Made by a program: the position numbers and the translations under genes. From Elusimicrobiota bacterium (GTDB lineage Bacteria > Elusimicrobiota > Elusimicrobia > Elusimicrobiales > UBA9959), in assembly GCA_036574205.1 (NCBI GenBank), contig JAINCQ010000028.1, positions 1-64,000 on the forward strand: a stretch of 64,000 nucleotides of DNA, read 5' to 3'. Below the pieces are notes generated by a model. That model saw only the letters and a list, made by a program, of their open reading frames with translations, made no database searches and was not told the origin of the DNA. Numbering within the stretch: the first letter of the stretch is position 1; each line of letters begins with the position of its first letter. Below are positions 34,372 to 62,125 of this stretch, piece after piece.

Positions 34372-34422
34372 AACATCCACTAATTTTCCACGGCCGTGTT
34401 TAAACTGTGGATAATAATTTAG
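34372..34422. repeat. Dispersed palindromic repeat, copy A
   Basis: aacatccactaattttccacggccgtgtttaaactgtggataataatttag; similar copies at 59145 and 59223. Confidence 0.85.
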
Positions 34423-34473
34423 TGCAAAATTAGCTATTTATTTAAATCCCTTCCCCCACTTAAATTTATTTTT

Positions 34474-55151: not shown

Positions 55152-56792
55152 ATGAAAGTAAAAGCGCCAAGAGGAAATAAAATAACTTGTAAAGGTTGGG
55201 AACAGGAAGCTGCTATGCGGATGCTTATGAACAATTTGGATTCCGAAGTAGCTGAAAAACCTGAGGAACTAATAGTTTATGGTGGAAGAGGAAAAGCTGC
55301 AAGAAATTGGGATGCTTTTAAAGCTATAATTAAAAGCTTAAAAGAATTAAATGATGATGAAACACTACTTGTTCAATCAGGAAAACCGGTTGGCATAGCT
55401 AAAACACATGAATATGCTCCAAGGGTTTTAATAGCAAATTCCAATTTAGTTGGTAATTGGGCTAAATGGGAAGTTTTTAATGATCTTGAAAAAAAAGGTC
55501 TTATAATGTATGGTCAGATGACTGCGGGCTCCTGGATTTACATAGGCACTCAGGGTATATTACAGGGAACTTATGAGACTTTTGCGGCATGTGCCAGAAA
55601 ACATTTTAAATCTGATTTAACTGGCAAGCTTGTTGTAAGTGGTGGGCTTGGTGGAATGGGAGGGGCTCAGCCTCTTGCAATTACAATGAATAATGGAGTT
55701 GGAATTATTATAGAGGTTGATCCTCAAAGGATTCAAAAAAGGCTTAAAACTGGATATTTAGATACAATGACTGAAAGTTTAGATGAAGCTCTTGAAATAG
55801 CAAACAGATACATAAAAGAGAAAAAACCTATTTCAATTGGTCTTTTGGGAAATTGCGCTGAAATACTCCCACAGATGCTTAAAATGGGAGTAAAGATAGA
55901 TGTTTTAACTGATCAAACTTCAGCGCATGACCCGTTAAATGGCTATATTCCAAAAGGTTTAAGTTTAGAAGAAGCTAAAAAGTTAAGAGAAAAAGATCCG
56001 GATAGCTATATAAAAAAATCAATGGAGTCTATGGCAATACATGTTGAAGCAATGCTTGGATTTTTGAAAAATGGAACGATTGTTTTTGACTATGGAAATA
56101 ATATAAGGACGATGGCTTATAATCAGGGTGTTAAAAATGCTTATGATTTTCCCGGTTTTGTGCCAGCTTATATAAGAGATTTATTTTGTGAAGGTAAAGG
56201 ACCATTTAGATGGGTAGCTTTAAGTGGGGATCCGAAAGACATATACTTTACGGATAAACTTGCAATGGAAACATTTCCCAAAAATGAGACTATGATTAGA
56301 TGGATTAAGATGGCTTCAAAAAAGGTTCATTTTCAGGGCCTTCCAGCAAGAATATGCTGGCTTGGTTATGGAGAAAGGCATATTTTAGGGCTTAAGTTTA
56401 ATGAGATGGTTAAAAAAGGTAAGATATCCGCTCCTATTGTAATTGGAAGGGATCATTTAGATAGCGGATCTGTTGCAAGCCCTTTTAGAGAGACAGAATC
56501 TATGAAAGATGGCTCAGATGCAATAGCAGATTGGCCTATTTTAAATGCTTTGCTTAATACCGCAAGTGGTGCAAGCTGGGTTAGCTTTCATCACGGCGGT
56601 GGGGTTGGGATAGGATATTCTTTACATGCCGGTCAGGTTATAGTTTGTGATGGAAGCAAGAAAATGAGAGATAGGATTGAAAGGGTTTTAACAAATGATC
56701 CTCTTATGGGAGTTTTAAGGCATTATGATGCAGGATATGAGATAGCCAAAAAATTTGCTCAAAAAAATAAGATAAAAATTCCAATGAGATAG
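55152..56792 (+). CDS. hutU: Urocanate hydratase
   Basis: [45 protein letters not shown]. Confidence 0.98.
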
Positions 56793-56850
56793 CATATAAC
56801 TGCTAGTATTATTGTTATCATCCTCCTCCGGTTAGGATGAACCCAAAGAT

Positions 56851-56868
56851 AACCTACGAGGTTGAAAA
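56851..56868 (+). repeat. 18-bp direct repeat, left copy (aacctacgaggttgaaaa)
   Basis: Identical to 59412-59429; contains the palindrome AACCT-acg-AGGTT. Confidence 0.8.
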
Positions 56869-56911
56869 TAACTTTAAAACATAAATCTTCATCTTATTAT
56901 CCTCCACTTAA

Positions 56912-57042
56912 AAAAATGATGGTATAAAAAACCTATTTAATTATAGGACTAAGGTTATTGAAAAATGAAATATTTTGAGGTAATTTATAAGTGGTTTAAG
57001 GTGAATATTATAAGGAGATGTTGAAAAGTAGATGTATTAACA
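56912..57042 (+). promoter_or_regulatory. Duplicated ~130-bp promoter/leader block, copy 1
   Basis: Near-identical to 58356-58480. Paired boxes at 56922 and 56946, then TTGAAA (56958) - 17 bp - TAATTT (56981). Confidence 0.75.
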
Positions 57043-57103
57043 GACTGAGAAAAAAATAAAATCACACAATATAAATCAAGGAGAAAATGGTAAAATAGTA
57101 GTA

Positions 57104-57739
57104 GTGGTGTTAATGGCAGTGTTAATGTTCTCTTATACAAATGCAGAAGAGACTAAAATGGACTTTGATGGGAAAGTTCAAAGAACTGAGAGTATTATTG
57201 AAACTATAAAAGCAAACATTGATAATGCTAATGCTCTTAATGTTTCCCTGCCGAAACCAGAACCTGAGGTAGTGAATAATACTGATAAAATGGAAGAAAG
57301 GAATCTTGATTATTCAATTAAAACAGCTATAGAATACTGTAAAAAACAAAATTTCAGTATTCTTGAAAATAACTTTAGAAACTTGCTTATCCATGGGACA
57401 AGGGAAGAAAAATATGAATTCGTTTATAATGCTGGAAAGACTTATGTTTTCCCTCTCAGGATTAGAAGAATGTCTTTGTTTGATAATAAAAGTACCCAAT
57501 ATAACATTCAACAGTTATCTAAAACGAGATTATATACATGTATCGCATCTCATATTGAAGAGGAATGTATAAACCGTCCGGTTTGTAGAATTGTTTGTAC
57601 CGCTGCATCTACTTTTGCGGGAAGTGTAGCTGGCGGACACACTGGGGCAGCGGTTGCTATTGGTGTTTCCGGACAAATATGCCAAGAATTATGCGAACTA
57701 ATTCCTGAATGCAGCTTAATAACAGTTTGCGATAAATAG
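57104..57739 (+). CDS. Secreted protein with a C-terminal 8-Cys hairpin domain (candidate toxin/bacteriocin precursor); start possibly frameshifted
   Basis: Hydrophobic N-terminus ending TNA|EE; C-terminal C-x8-C-x5-C-x3-C-x27-C-x3-C-x5-C-x5-C around a Gly/Ala-rich segment. Confidence 0.7.
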   Translation: MVLMAVLMFSYTNAEETKMDFDGKVQRTESIIETIKANIDNANALNVSLPKPEPEVVNNTDKMEERNLDYSIKTAIEYCKKQNFSILENNFRNLLIHGTREEKYEFVYNAGKTYVFPLRIRRMSLFDNKSTQYNIQQLSKTRLYTCIASHIEEECINRPVCRIVCTAASTFAGSVAGGHTGAAVAIGVSGQICQELCELIPECSLITVCDK

Positions 57740-57809
57740 CAAGACGATCCGATTAATATTGGGATGCAAGATCAAAATGGAAATTGGTATTAATGCAAGG
57801 AGAAATAAA

Positions 57810-58262
57810 ATGAGCAAAGAAACAAAAGCTATGATTTATATTACTTCGGTGGTAAGTATTTGCTTTGTGAGTATAGAATATCTGAATGGCTTAAGTTTTT
57901 TTAGACAACTTACGCCTGTTTTGAGAATTTTTATAGCAGGTATAATTGGTGGGGTTGTTGGTTTAGTATTTACAAGCATAGCGTATTTGTGTGATAAATA
58001 TATTAAAAGTGAAAAGGGAGGTCCTCCAATATCCTTCTGGAAATATATTCTAATCTTTTCTCAACCTCAAAAGGGAAAATTAAGACGCGCAATAACAGCA
58101 GGGTTTGTTGCGTCTTGTATAATCTTACTCCATGAGTTAGGGTATTTTGTTCATCTAAATCTGGTTGCAAGATTTTTTATTGGTGTAGTTTTGGGTGTGA
58201 GTATTGGTTTATTGGTTGAGTATGTAGCTAAAATTGTACCTAAACAAAAGACTATTACATAG
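57810..58262 (+). CDS. Membrane protein with two similar 2-TM units (candidate immunity protein)
   Basis: AAGGAG RBS; FFRQLTPVLRIFIAGIIGGVVGLV resembles YFVHLNLVARFFIGVVLGVSIGLL. Confidence 0.65.
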   Translation: MSKETKAMIYITSVVSICFVSIEYLNGLSFFRQLTPVLRIFIAGIIGGVVGLVFTSIAYLCDKYIKSEKGGPPISFWKYILIFSQPQKGKLRRAITAGFVASCIILLHELGYFVHLNLVARFFIGVVLGVSIGLLVEYVAKIVPKQKTIT

Positions 58263-58355
58263 TTTCTGCTCAAGAACTTATAGAAATTATTGTGCCAACT
58301 ATAAATTAAAGCCAAAAAAGTTTTTTCTTGGCAAATTAAATTAACTATTATGTAG

Positions 58356-58480
58356 AAAAATGATGGCATAAAAGACCTATTTAATTATAGGACTAAGGTT
58401 ATTGAAAAATAAAATATTTTGAGGTAATTTACAAGTGGTTTAAGGTGAATATAAGGAGATGAAAAGTGGATGTATTAACA
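58356..58480 (+). promoter_or_regulatory. Duplicated promoter/leader block, copy 2
   Basis: Near-identical to 56912-57042. Confidence 0.75.
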
Positions 58481-58509
58481 CTATTTGCCAATAATTGGAA
58501 AGAGGGATT

Positions 58510-58758
58510 ATGAATATCATAAAGGTTGTGAGTATCCTAAAAAAGATAAATAATGATAAAGAATTTAATAATTCTTTTGTCCGTATGACGGGCATATTTG
58601 TCGGGATAATGCTTATAAATCACTATTTAAAGATATTTGATAAATATAGTGGTTTTATCGCAGTTTTCATGGCAGTAATTGTTAGCTGTGTATCTTATAG
58701 TTTATGGATATTTATTATTGGAGGTTTATATAAATTGTATAAGCGGCTTAAAGCATAA
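58510..58758 (+). CDS. Small 2-TM membrane protein
   Basis: GAGGG RBS, two hydrophobic helices and a basic tail. Confidence 0.6.
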   Translation: MNIIKVVSILKKINNDKEFNNSFVRMTGIFVGIMLINHYLKIFDKYSGFIAVFMAVIVSCVSYSLWIFIIGGLYKLYKRLKA

Positions 58759-58906
58759 AAGATTTTCCTATACTGGTCAAAACCTGTTATATTTTAAAAA
58801 TGTTAGTAGAAATTAGTAATTTTCTTACCAGCTATAGATGCTTTTTTAGGTAAACATATACAAAAAATGTATTTTTCTAAATAGAATATTCCAAAGGGGG
58901 TTTTTT

Positions 58907-59101
58907 ATGATAAAAAGGATATTTGAAAATACGGCTTTTTGGTTATGTCTTGTTGGAATAATAATAGCCCGTATTATTCATAAAAAATATGGTAATTCTA
59001 TCCCAGAATATATTGATTTTTTGGTTACTTCTTTGTTACCATCATTTGGTATATTGATAGGTATTTATATTGAGAAGAAACGACGCAAGCAAATAACTTG
59101 A
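58907..59101 (+). CDS. Small 2-TM membrane protein
   Basis: AGGGGG RBS, two hydrophobic helices and a basic tail (KKRRK). Confidence 0.6.
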   Translation: MIKRIFENTAFWLCLVGIIIARIIHKKYGNSIPEYIDFLVTSLLPSFGILIGIYIEKKRRKQIT

Positions 59102-59144
59102 AACATCAAATTTAGTAAACAATAATTTATATTTTGCTTTCAAA

Positions 59145-59273
59145 AACATCCACTAATTTTACACGATCGTAGTTAAACTGTGGATAATAATTTATTAGAA
59201 ATTCTATAACTTTCTTCTGACTAACATCCACTCATTTTACACGGCCGTGTATAAACTGTGGATGATAGTTTAG
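59145..59273. repeat. Dispersed palindromic repeat, copies B (59145-59194) and C (59223-59273)
   Basis: aacatccact-atttt-[acacgatcgtag / acacggccgtgt]-taaactgtggat, matching copy A at 34372. Confidence 0.85.
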
Positions 59274-59411
59274 TATAAAAAAAATTTCTACTACTGTAAT
59301 TGATTATATATATGTTATGATATTGATAAGCGACATAAATGATTAAATCCGAAAAACGCCAATGGGATATTTTTTAAATCAGAAATTTCAAAATCATGAC
59401 AATCTTTAGAC

Positions 59412-59429
59412 AACCTACGAGGTTGAAAA
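59412..59429 (+). repeat. 18-bp direct repeat, right copy
   Basis: Identical to 56851-56868. Confidence 0.8.
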
Positions 59430-59572
59430 AGGTTAGAAATTAAATATGATTATTTTTAATGCGACTGCTTTTTCAATCAATAGTATAAAGTAAAAAAACA
59501 GAGTTTCGCTTAGATTGGTTTCGATCTGAATCATTGTTTTTTTATTGTTTTTCAATCTTATATAATATATTT

Positions 59573-62125
59573 ATGTCAACTTCTAAAACAATAAACGATA
59601 TAGACACTCCATTAATGAATCAGTATAAAGAAATAAAAGCTCAATATGAGGATTCTATATTGTTTTTCAGGTTAGGTGATTTTTATGAGATGTTTGATGA
59701 GGATGCCAAAACTGCTTCAAGAATACTTGGTTTGGTGCTTACCAAAAGACATGGTGTGCCAATGTGCGGGGTGCCATACCATTCTGCCATTAATTATATC
59801 TCAAAGCTTATTAATAATGGTTTTAAGGTTGCAATATGCGAGCAGATAGGGGAGGATGACAAAAAGTCAAATCTTTTTAAACGAAAGGTTGTAAGGGTAA
59901 TAACCCCCGGCACTGTAATAGAAGACAATCTCCTCAACGCCAAATCAACAAATTATCTTGCGGCTGTTATAGTTGATATGGTTGGCTGGGGTATGAGCTG
60001 GATTGATGTATCCACAGGGGAGTTTTATTCTATTAATAAACTTGATGATGCATATTTTAGTGATTTTCTTTCCTTAATATCAAGGGTTTCTCCCAGAGAA
60101 ATAGTCAGCGATTCAAATACTTTGAGATATATTGAACAAAACAGGATTAATATTTTTAAAGATAAAGTATCTGTTTTAAATCCAGATTATAATTTAGATT
60201 ATCCCTGGATAAAAGAGTCTATATGGCAAAATAATAAATTGGCGCTGAAATCCGCTTTGCTTGCCCTTTCTTATATAAAATCCGTTCAACCCGAAATGAC
60301 ATCCTCTCCTAAACCGCTTTATTTTGATGACTCAAACAATTTAAAGCTTGATGAAACTGCTATAAAAACACTTGAGCTTATAGAGCCTGATTATGAGGGG
60401 GGGCATTCTCTTTTTGACGTCATAGATTATTCAAAAACCTCTATGGGTTCAAGATTAATTAAGAAATGGATCTTAAACCCGCTTTCAGATTATTATACGC
60501 TTAAATCAAGACTTGATGCTGTGGAATATTTTTATAATAATGAAGAAAAGGTTGAGGCTTTATGGAAGGTGATTTCAGAAATTCCTGATATAGAAAGGAT
60601 TTGTGGTAGAATTCTAAACACAAGCATAACGCCTCAAGATGCTGTTGCTATAAAAAATGCGATTAAAAAACTTGATTTAATAGCAGATTATCTTAAAGAA
60701 GGCGATTTTATTTCTTATATTCCGGATGTTGTCAGAAGGGTTGACGCAATAAGAGATCTTAATAATCTTGGACAGTTGTTAGAAAAAGCTATTGATGAAA
60801 ACTCATCTCTTAAAGCAGGGGAAGGAGATCTTTTTAAAAGCGGATATAATTTAGACTATGATGAGCTAAAAAAACTCATTGATGACTCTCAAAGTATTAT
60901 AAAAAATCTTGAATTAGCCGAGAGAGAAAAGACAGGGATTAACTCGCTTAAAATTGGATACAATTCTAATTTTGGATATTTTATAGAAGTTACCAAAACT
61001 CATATTTCCAAAATCCCATCTCATTACATAAGGAAACAGACGTTAGTTGCTTCAGAAAGGTTTATAACGGATGAGTTAAAAAGACTTGAAGAAAAGATTT
61101 TAAGCGCAAGCGAAAAAATAAAGAAACTTGAGCTTTCTCTCTTTATGGAGATAAAGAAAGAGGTTTTGAAGTATATTTCAAAAATAAGCGCTTTTGCTTT
61201 TGTTATTGCATATGTAGACGCTTATGCTGCGTTAGCTGAGGCGGCAAGGAAAAACGATTATGTAAAACCTGAGATAGTCAATGAAGATGTAATAGAAATT
61301 GAAGATGGTCGTCATCCTGTTGTGGAAAAATTTTTAAGCTCTTCTTCTTCTTTTGTGCCTAATGATCTTACATTTAATGAGAAAATAAGGTCTATAATTA
61401 TAACAGGACCTAATATGAGCGGAAAAAGCGTTTACTTAAGACAAAACGCTTTGATAGTTATAATGGCTCAGATGGGTTCTTTTGTTCCGGCTTCTAAAGC
61501 CAGAATAGGGATTGTTGACAGGATAATGACCAGAATAGGCGCTCATGATAAGCTTGTCAGAGGCGAGTCTACTTTTATGGTTGAAATGAAGGAGACAAGT
61601 AACATATTAAAGCTTGCAACAAGAAAAAGCCTGATACTTTTAGATGAAATTGGAAGGGGAACTTCAACATTTGACGGGATTTCTATAGCATATGCGGTAC
61701 TTGAATATATACATAAAAATATAGGAGCCAAAGTTCTTTTTGCCACTCATTTTTTTGAGATAACTGAGTTGGCAAATAAATATGAGGGAATCAGAAATCT
61801 TAATATATCGGTTAAAGAGTGGGTAAACTCAAAAGGTAAAACCGAAATATCTTTTCTTCATAAAGTTGTGGAAGGCGCAGCTGACAGATCTTATGGTGTT
61901 CATGTTGCACAGATTGCAGGACTTCCAGAACAATGTATCAAACGAGCAAGGGAGATATTAAAAGAACTTGAAAGCAGGGAAATAGACTTACATGCAAAGT
62001 CTGAAATGCTTCCACTTTTTTCATCAAATCCTTTAATTGATAAAATCAAACTAATAGACATAGACAAAATCACACCTATAGAGGCTCTTAATATACTTTC
62101 TGAATTAAAGAAAGAAATAGAATAA
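59573..62125 (+). CDS. mutS: DNA mismatch repair protein MutS
   Basis: TPLMNQY, FFRLGDFYEMF, GPNMSGKS, STFMVEM, DEIGRGTST, ATHF, SYGVHVA. Confidence 0.98.
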   Translation: MSTSKTINDIDTPLMNQYKEIKAQYEDSILFFRLGDFYEMFDEDAKTASRILGLVLTKRHGVPMCGVPYHSAINYISKLINNGFKVAICEQIGEDDKKSNLFKRKVVRVITPGTVIEDNLLNAKSTNYLAAVIVDMVGWGMSWIDVSTGEFYSINKLDDAYFSDFLSLISRVSPREIVSDSNTLRYIEQNRINIFKDKVSVLNPDYNLDYPWIKESIWQNNKLALKSALLALSYIKSVQPEMTSSPKPLYFDDSNNLKLDETAIKTLELIEPDYEGGHSLFDVIDYSKTSMGSRLIKKWILNPLSDYYTLKSRLDAVEYFYNNEEKVEALWKVISEIPDIERICGRILNTSITPQDAVAIKNAIKKLDLIADYLKEGDFISYIPDVVRRVDAIRDLNNLGQLLEKAIDENSSLKAGEGDLFKSGYNLDYDELKKLIDDSQSIIKNLELAEREKTGINSLKIGYNSNFGYFIEVTKTHISKIPSHYIRKQTLVASERFITDELKRLEEKILSASEKIKKLELSLFMEIKKEVLKYISKISAFAFVIAYVDAYAALAEAARKNDYVKPEIVNEDVIEIEDGRHPVVEKFLSSSSSFVPNDLTFNEKIRSIIITGPNMSGKSVYLRQNALIVIMAQMGSFVPASKARIGIVDRIMTRIGAHDKLVRGESTFMVEMKETSNILKLATRKSLILLDEIGRGTSTFDGISIAYAVLEYIHKNIGAKVLFATHFFEITELANKYEGIRNLNISVKEWVNSKGKTEISFLHKVVEGAADRSYGVHVAQIAGLPEQCIKRAREILKELESREIDLHAKSEMLPLFSSNPLIDKIKLIDIDKITPIEALNILSELKKEIE

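Follow-up and report, generated by a model that had tools for sequence, protein, structure and literature searches.

The first 64,000 nucleotides (nt) of contig JAINCQ010000028.1 of an Elusimicrobiota bacterium (assembly GCA_036574205.1), hereafter the window, contain between the hutU and mutS genes an island that encodes a Cys-rich protein followed by three small membrane proteins (genes 2 to 4, Table 1). The comparison of this island with related loci leads us to propose, with a probability of about 0.55, that intact members of the Cys-rich family would be membrane toxins clamped by disulfides and matured in the periplasm, and that the window carries a decaying locus which would now mainly supply immunity. 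Swappable C-terminal domains, a linked partner gene that co-varies with them, orphan partners, a patchy distribution, conditional expression, and decay of the toxin gene with retention of its partner together form the signature of polymorphic toxin-immunity systems. It is this signature, combined with the known membrane activity of glycine-zipper hairpins, that leads us to regard the members of the family as putative membrane toxins.

The C-terminal part of the window protein harbours eight Cys (residues 146, 155, 161, 165, 193, 197, 203 and 209) with the spacing x8-x5-x3-[27]-x3-x5-x5. C165 and C193 enclose TAASTFAGSVAGGHTGAAVAIGVSGQI, a loop devoid of charged residues, in which a G-x3-G-x3-G motif lies inside AGSVAGGHTG. 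An earlier description made from the nucleotides alone, hereafter the sequence-only reading, had already pointed out eight Cys, the inner six of them in mirror-symmetric spacing (5-3-[27]-3-5) around an uncharged Gly/Ala/Val stretch, and this is indeed what the protein contains. The same reading had not recognised the family, and neither did the libraries. A word-indexed search of 5.8 billion proteins returned only the window protein and one relative at 35% identity. A profile built from seven sequences and run against 1.84 billion cluster representatives retrieved 133 of them at E<=1e-3, of which 70 reached E<=1e-10 and 25 reached E<=1e-30. Scanned against Pfam (E<=0.01), these 133 members matched 11 families, all weakly and none by more than three members; no NCBIfam model was matched by more than one member, again weakly. 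DUF5769 (PF19073), hit by one of the seven and one of the 133 sequences below the cut-off, was treated as a chance match. Where a source name is given, which is the case for few members, it reads 'hypothetical protein' of Elusimicrobia, and no description of the hairpin family was found in family libraries or in the literature covered, which left out subscription journals and bioRxiv supplements.

The pattern C-x8-C-x5-C-x3-C-loop-C-x3-C-x5-C-x5-C fits 70 of the 133 members. The modal loop length is 27 residues (28 of the 70), and loops usually consist of 60% to 80% Gly and Ala and mostly carry no charge. In many members, Gly occupies every fourth loop position, and an extended small-xxx-small feature is present. 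The uncharged Gly/Ala hairpin is thereby supported as the putative conserved unit of a family of secreted proteins. In order to examine the Cys, all members were aligned to a hidden Markov model (HMM) of the domain, and the eight Cys columns were read in the resulting 101 aligned domains. All eight Cys are kept in 69 domains, C3 and C6 are jointly absent in 13, where Trp usually replaces C3 and Asn or Ala replaces C6, and C4 and C5 are jointly absent in five, counts that do not represent independent events since related sequences have changes in common. Apart from four domains considered further below, the remainder are truncated or ambiguous, and no other combination of losses was seen. Furthermore, additional Cys in the loop come in pairs, with none in 50 proteins, two in 19 and one in a single protein among the 70. 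Paired losses and paired loop Cys are what nested C4-C5 and C3-C6 bonds predict; the invariant outer four would then pair as C2-C7 and C1-C8. This covariation supports a predicted nested disulfide ladder, the arrangement that had been anticipated from the spacing.

Structure prediction, which the sequence-only reading had proposed as a check, gave a mixed answer. An AlphaFold model of the protein based on the seven-sequence alignment reached a mean predicted local distance difference test score (pLDDT) of 58 and rendered the domain as one long beta hairpin (residues 149-175 and 183-209). With the domain alone and an alignment of 65 sequences, the pLDDT rose to 68; the C2 strand pairs with the C7-C8 strand at a pLDDT of about 94, and both CX3C motifs lie on facing helices above this two-stranded sheet base, with a tip below 50. 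The fold of the loop differs between the two models, and we consider the disulfide clamp well supported and the conformation of the Gly/Ala tip not. With regard to solved structures, a Foldseek search of the PDB with the full model returned nothing at E<=1e-3. Its weak rows corresponded to the long stem hairpins of pore toxins and were set aside as a trivial likeness to any long hairpin. A VIA-align wide search with the domain model gave generic helical hairpins with a best Z of 3.7, and a sequence profile search of the PDB found no solved relative, with one row at E 0.084. The structural neighbours of an ESM Atlas model are glycine-zipper clusters with a template-modelling score of about 0.5, which is a lead only; the Atlas feature hits reached scores of at most 0.83 and were set aside.

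In long forms of the family, the signal peptide and a DFDG motif right past its cleavage site precede a helical domain, which is followed by the Cys domain. This N-terminal helical domain (pattern IEYCKK...LL..GT.EEK..F) covers residues about 59-108 and is predicted at a pLDDT of about 80. Short forms of about 100 residues consist of a signal or lipoprotein signal peptide and the Cys domain alone. Of note, one and the same N-terminal module (signal peptide, DFDG motif and helical domain) is joined to the hairpin, to variants with 13 to 15 Cys, or to unrelated Cys-rich C-termini. Among 401 genomes of the phylum, 20 have a match at E<=1e-5. The window's own family accounts for 16 of 46 genomes, and two other well-sampled families have matches in 0 of 118 and 0 of 89 genomes. 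As for two genomes of the same genus, one (G001) gave no match and the other (G002) a non-significant one (E 0.11). This distribution is patchy and is that of an accessory gene. A search of genome contigs with a degenerate DNA pattern of the Cys spacing yielded 138 loci, which were TG-repeat or unrelated Cys-repeat noise and included no family member. Among these loci, eight from Pirellulales (L072, L100, L105, L115, L122, L130, L171 and L172) encode tandem CYxxC(K/R)MVPEC(R)xKTVC units. These planctomycete open reading frames (ORFs) surfaced only by fitting the search pattern, and no relation to the hairpin family was shown.

Partner genes were counted at those 13 related loci whose downstream sequence extends for about 200 nt or more. 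At 12 of them (L025, L026, L027, L029, L030, L031, L032, L043, L044, L045, L192 and L194), a gene of 56 to 92 codons encoding two hydrophobic segments lies on the same strand, 4 to 54 nt past the stop codon of the toxin-type gene. The sequence-only reading had suggested searching with an HMM of the Cys domain for relatives with variable downstream transmembrane (TM) genes, and had named single-copy, conserved homologs lacking TM neighbours, or a known non-toxic fold, as outcomes that would speak against it. The search gave 133 representatives; a small TM gene follows at 12 of the 13 loci, and no solved fold was matched. Proteins of the window type, which have no loop Cys and contain ...GQICQELC..., are followed in four of four loci (L030, L031, L192 and L194) by a partner of the form MSER..GGISG...RAVIAG..FLVF. 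Those with two loop Cys are followed by partners of the type ...LP(W)xG..G..Y..K, and those with 13 to 15 Cys, in two of two loci (L027 and L043), by a type B partner, MNI(I/K)K...NDK(E/N)(F/M)N. In seven of nine loci, proteins with the same N-terminal domain and a non-hairpin Cys-rich C-terminus are accompanied by an unrelated partner of 165 to 185 residues with three hydrophobic segments, ending in ...ACEAYKAKTGAYP...PEYIKDIPAAK...YRLV. This 3-TM family, of which two members were tested and gave no Pfam match, is always found directly downstream of such proteins. Its members were seen at L033, L036, L037, L040, L047, L048 and L050, and fragments at L005 (2122-2349) and L192 (1716-2213). At these loci, partner subtype tracks toxin subtype, with three 2-TM subtypes and a 3-TM type.

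Genes 2 to 4 of the window are intact, and each codes for hydrophobic segments and has a Shine-Dalgarno site. The three small TM genes described from the nucleotides lie where they had been placed. The duplicated unit claimed for gene 2 is confirmed by the alignment of its two halves (BLASTP E 6e-5, 33% identity over 39 residues). All 452 ORFs of the window were searched with HMMs of the partner subtypes. Gene 3 matched the model of the partners of 13-15-Cys toxins at E 7.6e-17, and shares 44% identity (E 6e-22) with the gene that follows a second member of the Cys-rich family in the same genome, on contig C22, where an initial paralog match had given E 1.6e-17. Gene 4 was the best of the 452 ORFs against the model of the partners of two-loop-Cys toxins (E 1.4e-3). 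Genes 3 and 4 look like orphan immunity genes because they match the partners of toxin subtypes that are absent from the island, which bears out a further suggestion of the sequence-only reading. A predicted complex between the hairpin domain and the gene 2 product scored 0.07, in a prediction made without control runs, and speaks neither for nor against binding. A PADLOC scan gave a weak match for gene 4 only, to a '4TM effector' model (E 9.9e-5), which is probably compositional.

The Cys-rich gene itself looks disabled at its start. Its sole ATG with a ribosome-binding site, at 57087 and 3 nt downstream of AAGGAG, does not share the frame of the long ORF, from which it is offset by one base, and is followed by a stop after two further codons; in the long frame, no ATG, GTG or TTG lies upstream of the GTG at 57104. 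The in-frame starts leave just 11 to 14 residues before the TNA|EE cleavage site and no charged n-region, compared with about 20 to 24 residues in homologs. Reading through both pieces (the 57087 frame, then the long frame) would restore a normal signal peptide of 20 residues, as in homologs. The signal peptide claimed for this gene is therefore present in truncated form, but crippled, since the Shine-Dalgarno-linked ATG is out of frame. This ATG is probably the ancestral start, disabled by the loss of one nucleotide in an A run. The stretch is listed for a single DNA run, X1, and for no RNA run. In the Logan contigs of X1 the A4 run is unchanged and free of indels, although such contigs cannot reveal minority variants. 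Decay is also seen elsewhere. The paralog on C22 (E 4.3e-11) is frameshifted and shortened just past its signal peptide, and the copy in genome G010 is split mid-gene; in both cases the partner gene is intact. As a separate observation, a 185-residue protein of the window genome (L003 1063-1620, minus strand, contig C40 of G000) has only its leader (MLSYINAEE.K.NF) in common with the window protein. It ends in a different Cys- and aromatic-rich domain, and its downstream neighbour is a 337-residue lipoprotein-like gene, not a small TM gene.

The expression of intact relatives appears to be conditional. Fifteen of 21 related loci carry a TGGCA[CT]-N5-TTGC[ACT] motif 57 to 116 nt upstream of the start codon, against a chance expectation of about 0.006 per locus (a rough estimate that assumes equal base frequencies), and so do both metagenome loci with upstream sequence (L192 and L193). 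The motif corresponds to the consensus of sigma-54 promoters, with GG at -24 and GC at -12. Regulators of the REC+Sigma54_activat type are encoded divergently or nearby at L004, L005, L207, L208 and L211, and the locus of G007 has a Sigma54_DBD gene 2.4 kb further downstream. Eight extended loci contain genes for histidine kinases (6/8), SBP_bac_5 proteins (3/8), radical S-adenosylmethionine (SAM) enzymes (4/8) and a weak YcaO-like protein (1/8), and a 60-codon ORF with a signal peptide and no Cys adjoins the radical SAM gene. A recurrent module was noticed, made of a radical SAM (or weak YcaO-like) gene, the 60-codon ORF, an SBP_bac_5 gene and a histidine kinase of 540 to 750 residues, at L208 (13628-14960), L214 (9306-13916), L207 (9453-13999) and L210 (2124-6729). 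Judging from gene content, it is a candidate peptide-signal circuit feeding the sigma-54 regulator.

In the window, a promoter and 5'-leader cassette precedes the Cys-rich gene and a second copy precedes gene 3. The segments 56909-57008 and 58353-58452, 100 nt each, share 95% identity, and a further 21 nt are repeated at 57022 and 58460. No further copy of the 100-nt segment exists elsewhere in the genome, and an Rfam scan of 56500-59800 (E<=1) gave no match, so that this segment is not a known RNA. The cassettes keep TGGTATAAAA / TGGCATAAAA, and copy 2 is identical over ten bases to the -24 half of the relatives' promoters. Both have ACCT in place of TTGC; the -12 element is absent and neither forms a canonical sigma-54 promoter. 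The second promoter copy that the sequence-only reading placed before gene 3 is thus real as a 95% copy, but keeps only the -24 half of what relatives possess. Sigma54_DBD was found in 16 of 20 family-bearing genomes checked and not in the window genome (G000, 95% complete), G010, G355 and G049. Both same-genus genomes, G001 and G002, have a match, and several larger relatives were seen to encode two to four short (about 355-400 residues) Sigma54_DBD-bearing ORFs. None of the kinase, sigma-54 regulator, peptide-binding and radical SAM genes of the relatives' loci was found in the window genome.

This genetic context could also be taken to indicate a signalling or envelope module, in which the Cys-rich protein would be a periplasmic ligand, scaffold or stress factor, the membrane protein its anchor or receptor, and the kinase and sigma-54 regulator a circuit that switches both on. 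Such a role would agree with the tight linkage of histidine kinase, REC+Sigma54_activat, SBP_bac_5 and radical SAM genes in seven of the eight extended loci, with the frequency of sigma-54 promoters given above, and with the failure to match any toxin fold. However, a housekeeping module would not show so patchy an occurrence (20 of 401 genomes, and nothing significant in the two genomes of the same genus searched). It would not swap its C-terminal domain jointly with the downstream partner, would not leave orphan partners such as genes 3 and 4 without a secreted protein, and would not persist as partner-only remnants while the secreted gene decays. We regard this explanation as unlikely, albeit the strongest of the alternatives.

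For a toxin-immunity system, the following sequence of events can be proposed. In intact relatives, the first gene would encode a Sec-exported protein made of the N-terminal module (signal peptide, DFDG motif and three-helix domain) followed by a hairpin of about 65 residues. In the oxidising periplasm, four nested disulfides (C1-C8, C2-C7, C3-C6 and C4-C5) would form and clamp a polar stem, presenting at the tip the uncharged Gly/Ala glycine-zipper segment of about 27 residues. This hydrophobic tip would enter the cytoplasmic membrane from outside, and tips may then self-associate via their GxxxG faces into an ion-leaking assembly. The downstream 2-TM protein, residing in the inner membrane of the producer and carrying its own small-xxx-small motifs, would block the matching toxin subtype. 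The operon of the relatives would be fired from the sigma-54 promoter under a two-component system, probably sensing a peptide signal. In the window genome, the toxin start and the -12 element appear to have been lost, and one immunity-type gene in cognate position and two orphan ones remain intact, so that the island most likely now serves protection, not attack. What the sequences show is the family, the Cys covariation, the synteny, the matching of subtypes, the promoters and the start defect; toxicity, the membrane target, pore formation, immunity by binding and export beyond the periplasm are inferred.

Several observations weigh against this proposal. At the locus that departs from the partner rule, L038, the small TM ORF lies on the opposite strand in convergent orientation. 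Gene 2, the only match in the window to the HMM of the partners of window-type toxins, is a non-significant one (E 0.56). In four of the 101 aligned domains, all from the extra-Cys subfamily with the least certain alignment, a single Cys is absent, which breaks the pairing rule. The loop is all-beta in the seven-sequence model and helical in the 65-sequence model, at the low tip pLDDT already mentioned, and a disulfide-closed loop of 27 residues is short for a helical membrane span. The N-terminal domain, 120 residues in length, has no assigned role, and no route of export across the outer membrane is evident. With regard to regulation, G049 has a sigma-54 promoter yet no detected Sigma54_DBD, and the co-occurrence of two-component and sigma-54 genes fits a signalling or envelope-stress module equally well.

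Table 1. Features of the island between hutU and mutS, in window coordinates
Feature	Position	Strand	Remarks
Left flank repeat	56847-56868	.	22 nt, one mismatch to the right copy, 18 nt exact
Promoter/5'-leader cassette, copy 1	56909-57042	+	TGGTAT 56920-56925; sigma-70-like TTTATA-16-TATTAT 56984-57011
Shine-Dalgarno-linked ATG	57087-57098	+	reads ATG GTA AAA TAG; frame offset by one base relative to the long ORF
Cys-rich protein gene (gene 1)	57104-57739	+	211 residues from GTG; truncated signal peptide (residues 1-14), DFDG motif, helical N-terminal domain, hairpin domain
Disulfide-ladder/glycine-zipper hairpin domain (predicted)	57539-57730	+	C146 to C209; 27-residue uncharged loop encoded by 57599-57679
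Gene 2, membrane protein	57810-58262	+	150 residues, two 2-TM units; cognate position, 71 nt past the toxin stop
Promoter/5'-leader cassette, copy 2	58353-58480	+	TGGCAT 58364-58369; directly upstream of gene 3
Gene 3, membrane protein, type B	58510-58758	+	82 residues; homologous to the gene that follows toxins with 13-15 Cys
Gene 4, 2-TM protein, type A2	58907-59101	+	64 residues; resembles partners of toxins with extra loop Cys
REP-like hairpin element, two copies	59145-59201, 59223-59279	.	57 nt; within the last 290 nt of the block
Right flank repeat	59408-59429	.	same dispersed motif family as the left flank repeat

The 2.6-kb island occupies a 2.7-kb AT-rich spacer (29.6% G+C compared with 33.3% for the window) between hutU (55152-56792, plus strand) and mutS (59534-62125, plus strand). 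The 18-bp repeat on either side, which had been taken as its boundary, is present but not restricted to this locus. A 5-bp palindrome, AACCTACGAGGTT, forms its core, and 11 copies of the palindromic motif AACCTRCGAGGTT were counted genome-wide, against none for a reversed control. The window copies lie at 56851-56863 and 59412-59424, and others at C6:31376-31431, C7:56469-56525, C17:12759-12815, C36:32197-32275 and C8:134239 of G000. These copies are mostly paired, 43 to 66 nt apart, usually in the order ACG-type then GCG-type, with a partly conserved spacer that begins with TATAKTT, and the motif was sometimes seen within 0.5 to 1.5 kb of a REP-like (repetitive extragenic palindromic) element. 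The flank repeat is a dispersed palindromic element, not an att site or a signal that marks the border of the island. An insertion of the island between the halves of a paired AACCT element was considered and dropped, as both window copies are of the ACG type and genomic pairs run from ACG to GCG. The imperfect palindrome of 57 nt found twice at the end of the block has 35 matches genome-wide, single or paired and often at contig ends, including one at 34372-34429 of the window, and its second copy in the block is predicted to fold at -20.4 kcal/mol (z -4.7). It looks like a REP element or a miniature inverted-repeat transposable element, and lies outside the gene system. These copies and their genome-wide matches place the island in a repeat-rich junction. 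In G001 and G002, hutU and mutS are on different contigs with other neighbours. In G002 (L021 1-1238), the space upstream of mutS is occupied by two genes that resemble a putative AbiE-type nucleotidyltransferase toxin-antitoxin pair, which suggests that the junction next to mutS is variable.

Such surroundings raise the question of whether a repeat-mediated rearrangement between hutU and mutS simply trapped fragments of a dead module, none of whose genes would be functional. The defective toxin start, the broken sigma-54 promoter in a genome where Sigma54_DBD was not found, the abundance of dispersed repeats in the block, and the separation of hutU from mutS in G001 and G002 are all in line with inert debris. 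Nevertheless, three small genes remain intact with Shine-Dalgarno sites, gene 3 is still 44% identical to its intact paralog, and the leader cassette before it has been kept at 95% identity, all of which makes debris less probable still than a signalling role. Finally, the Cys-rich protein could be the precursor of a ribosomal peptide whose Cys are converted by a nearby radical SAM enzyme into thioether bridges instead of disulfides, as in sactipeptides, which are hairpins cross-linked from Cys. A radical SAM gene within a few kb in four of the eight extended loci and a weak YcaO-like match in another fit this idea, which is nonetheless highly improbable given the Sec signal peptides, the mirror pairs of Cys lost pairwise, the 60-codon small-peptide ORF that the radical SAM gene has as its own neighbour, and the lack of such an enzyme near the window locus and many others.

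Coming back to membrane toxins with immunity proteins, a bacteriocin-like toxin paired with a membrane immunity protein is a known kind of system; what is new here is the four-disulfide clamp on a glycine zipper, the Sec export and the sigma-54/peptide-sensor context. Polymorphic toxin-immunity systems in the sense of Zhang et al. 2012 reportedly combine a constant N-terminal trafficking part, variable C-terminal domains, a downstream cognate immunity gene and orphan cassettes. The present family resembles them in its constant N-terminal module with variable C-termini, its co-varying downstream partner, and the orphan-type genes 3 and 4. Antiparallel segments held by two nested disulfides are found in glycocins (sublancin), plant alpha-hairpinins and the twin-CX3C small Tims, and the 65-sequence model is like the twin-CX3C proteins in having CX3C...CX3C on facing helices. 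These stapled hairpins differ in having two disulfides, not four, and in lacking both the glycine-zipper tip and a membrane partner gene; glycocins, in addition, need a glycosyltransferase and a double-glycine leader. The Pfam families Gly-zipper_YMGG (PF13441), Gly-zipper_Omp (PF13488) and Rick_17kDa_Anti (PF05433) have a Gly/Ala hairpin of similar length, but without a flanking Cys ladder, and they are not among the 11 Pfam families matched by the 133 members.

A precedent is provided by CdzC/CdzD of Caulobacter crescentus, glycine-zipper bacteriocins with a small TM immunity protein, CdzI (PMC5380434). In common with the hairpin family, they are small secreted proteins dominated by an uncharged extended GxxxG region, with a small multi-TM immunity-type gene in the operon and condition-regulated expression, and they differ by a type I secretion leader, adjacent ABC and MFP genes and the absence of a Cys ladder (PMC5380434). 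Unlike Cdz, the hairpin family combines a Sec signal peptide with a ladder of eight Cys, and its long forms add the 120-residue N-terminal domain. No sequence similarity to Cdz was detected in the Pfam and NCBIfam scans, and no ATP-binding cassette transporter or membrane-fusion gene was found in the island or the scanned neighbours of relatives. In pore-forming colicins, the hairpin is the membrane-active element (PMC11630599). Like them, the present proteins are modular, with a C-terminal module whose uncharged hairpin would enter the inner membrane from the periplasm. Colicin immunity is conferred by a small, subtype-specific 3-4-TM protein, and the pore domain, about 200 residues long, forms a 10-helix bundle without disulfides, unlike the hairpin family; no Pfam colicin family was matched among the 133 members. 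Ionophore toxins of contact-dependent growth inhibition (CDI) systems with membrane CdiI proteins are polymorphic and membrane-active with a putative glycine zipper, and their immunity proteins are highly variable, hydrophobic and protective only against the cognate toxin (PMC11630599); their sequence and architecture are unrelated to those of the hairpin family. Class II microcins and class IIb GxxxG bacteriocins offer another likeness, as small Gly-rich membrane-active peptides made by Gram-negative bacteria, some of them with disulfides, and encoded beside small immunity genes (PMC12219008). They use double-glycine leaders and dedicated exporters, whereas the leaders of the hairpin family are Sec signal peptides. 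Bacteriocin_IIc (PF10439) was matched by one of the 133 members at E 2.7e-4, below the cut-off.

More tentatively than for the toxin proposal itself, we can envisage that the family constitutes a new class of Sec-exported diderm bacteriocins, in which a ladder-mounted glycine zipper would form the pore and 2-TM glycine-zipper proteins would confer subtype-specific immunity. Production in Elusimicrobia may then be under quorum-like control, by means of a peptide signal modified by radical SAM, a sensor made of SBP_bac_5 and histidine kinase, and a sigma-54 regulator of its own, and streamlined lineages without sigma-54 may keep only the shields. If confirmed, these proteins would extend the few known membrane-active bacteriocin folds by a structurally distinct warhead of about 65 residues, and would count as one of the first competition systems reported from the little-studied Elusimicrobiota. 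A small hairpin with predictable cross-links and natural pairs of subtype and immunity would also provide a tractable model for glycine-zipper assembly and for its specific block by a two-helix protein. The link to sigma-54, a peptide-binding sensor and radical SAM enzymes suggests an undescribed signalling circuit controlling antagonism, and the comparison of intact loci with the decayed locus of the window may illustrate how immunity genes outlive toxins.

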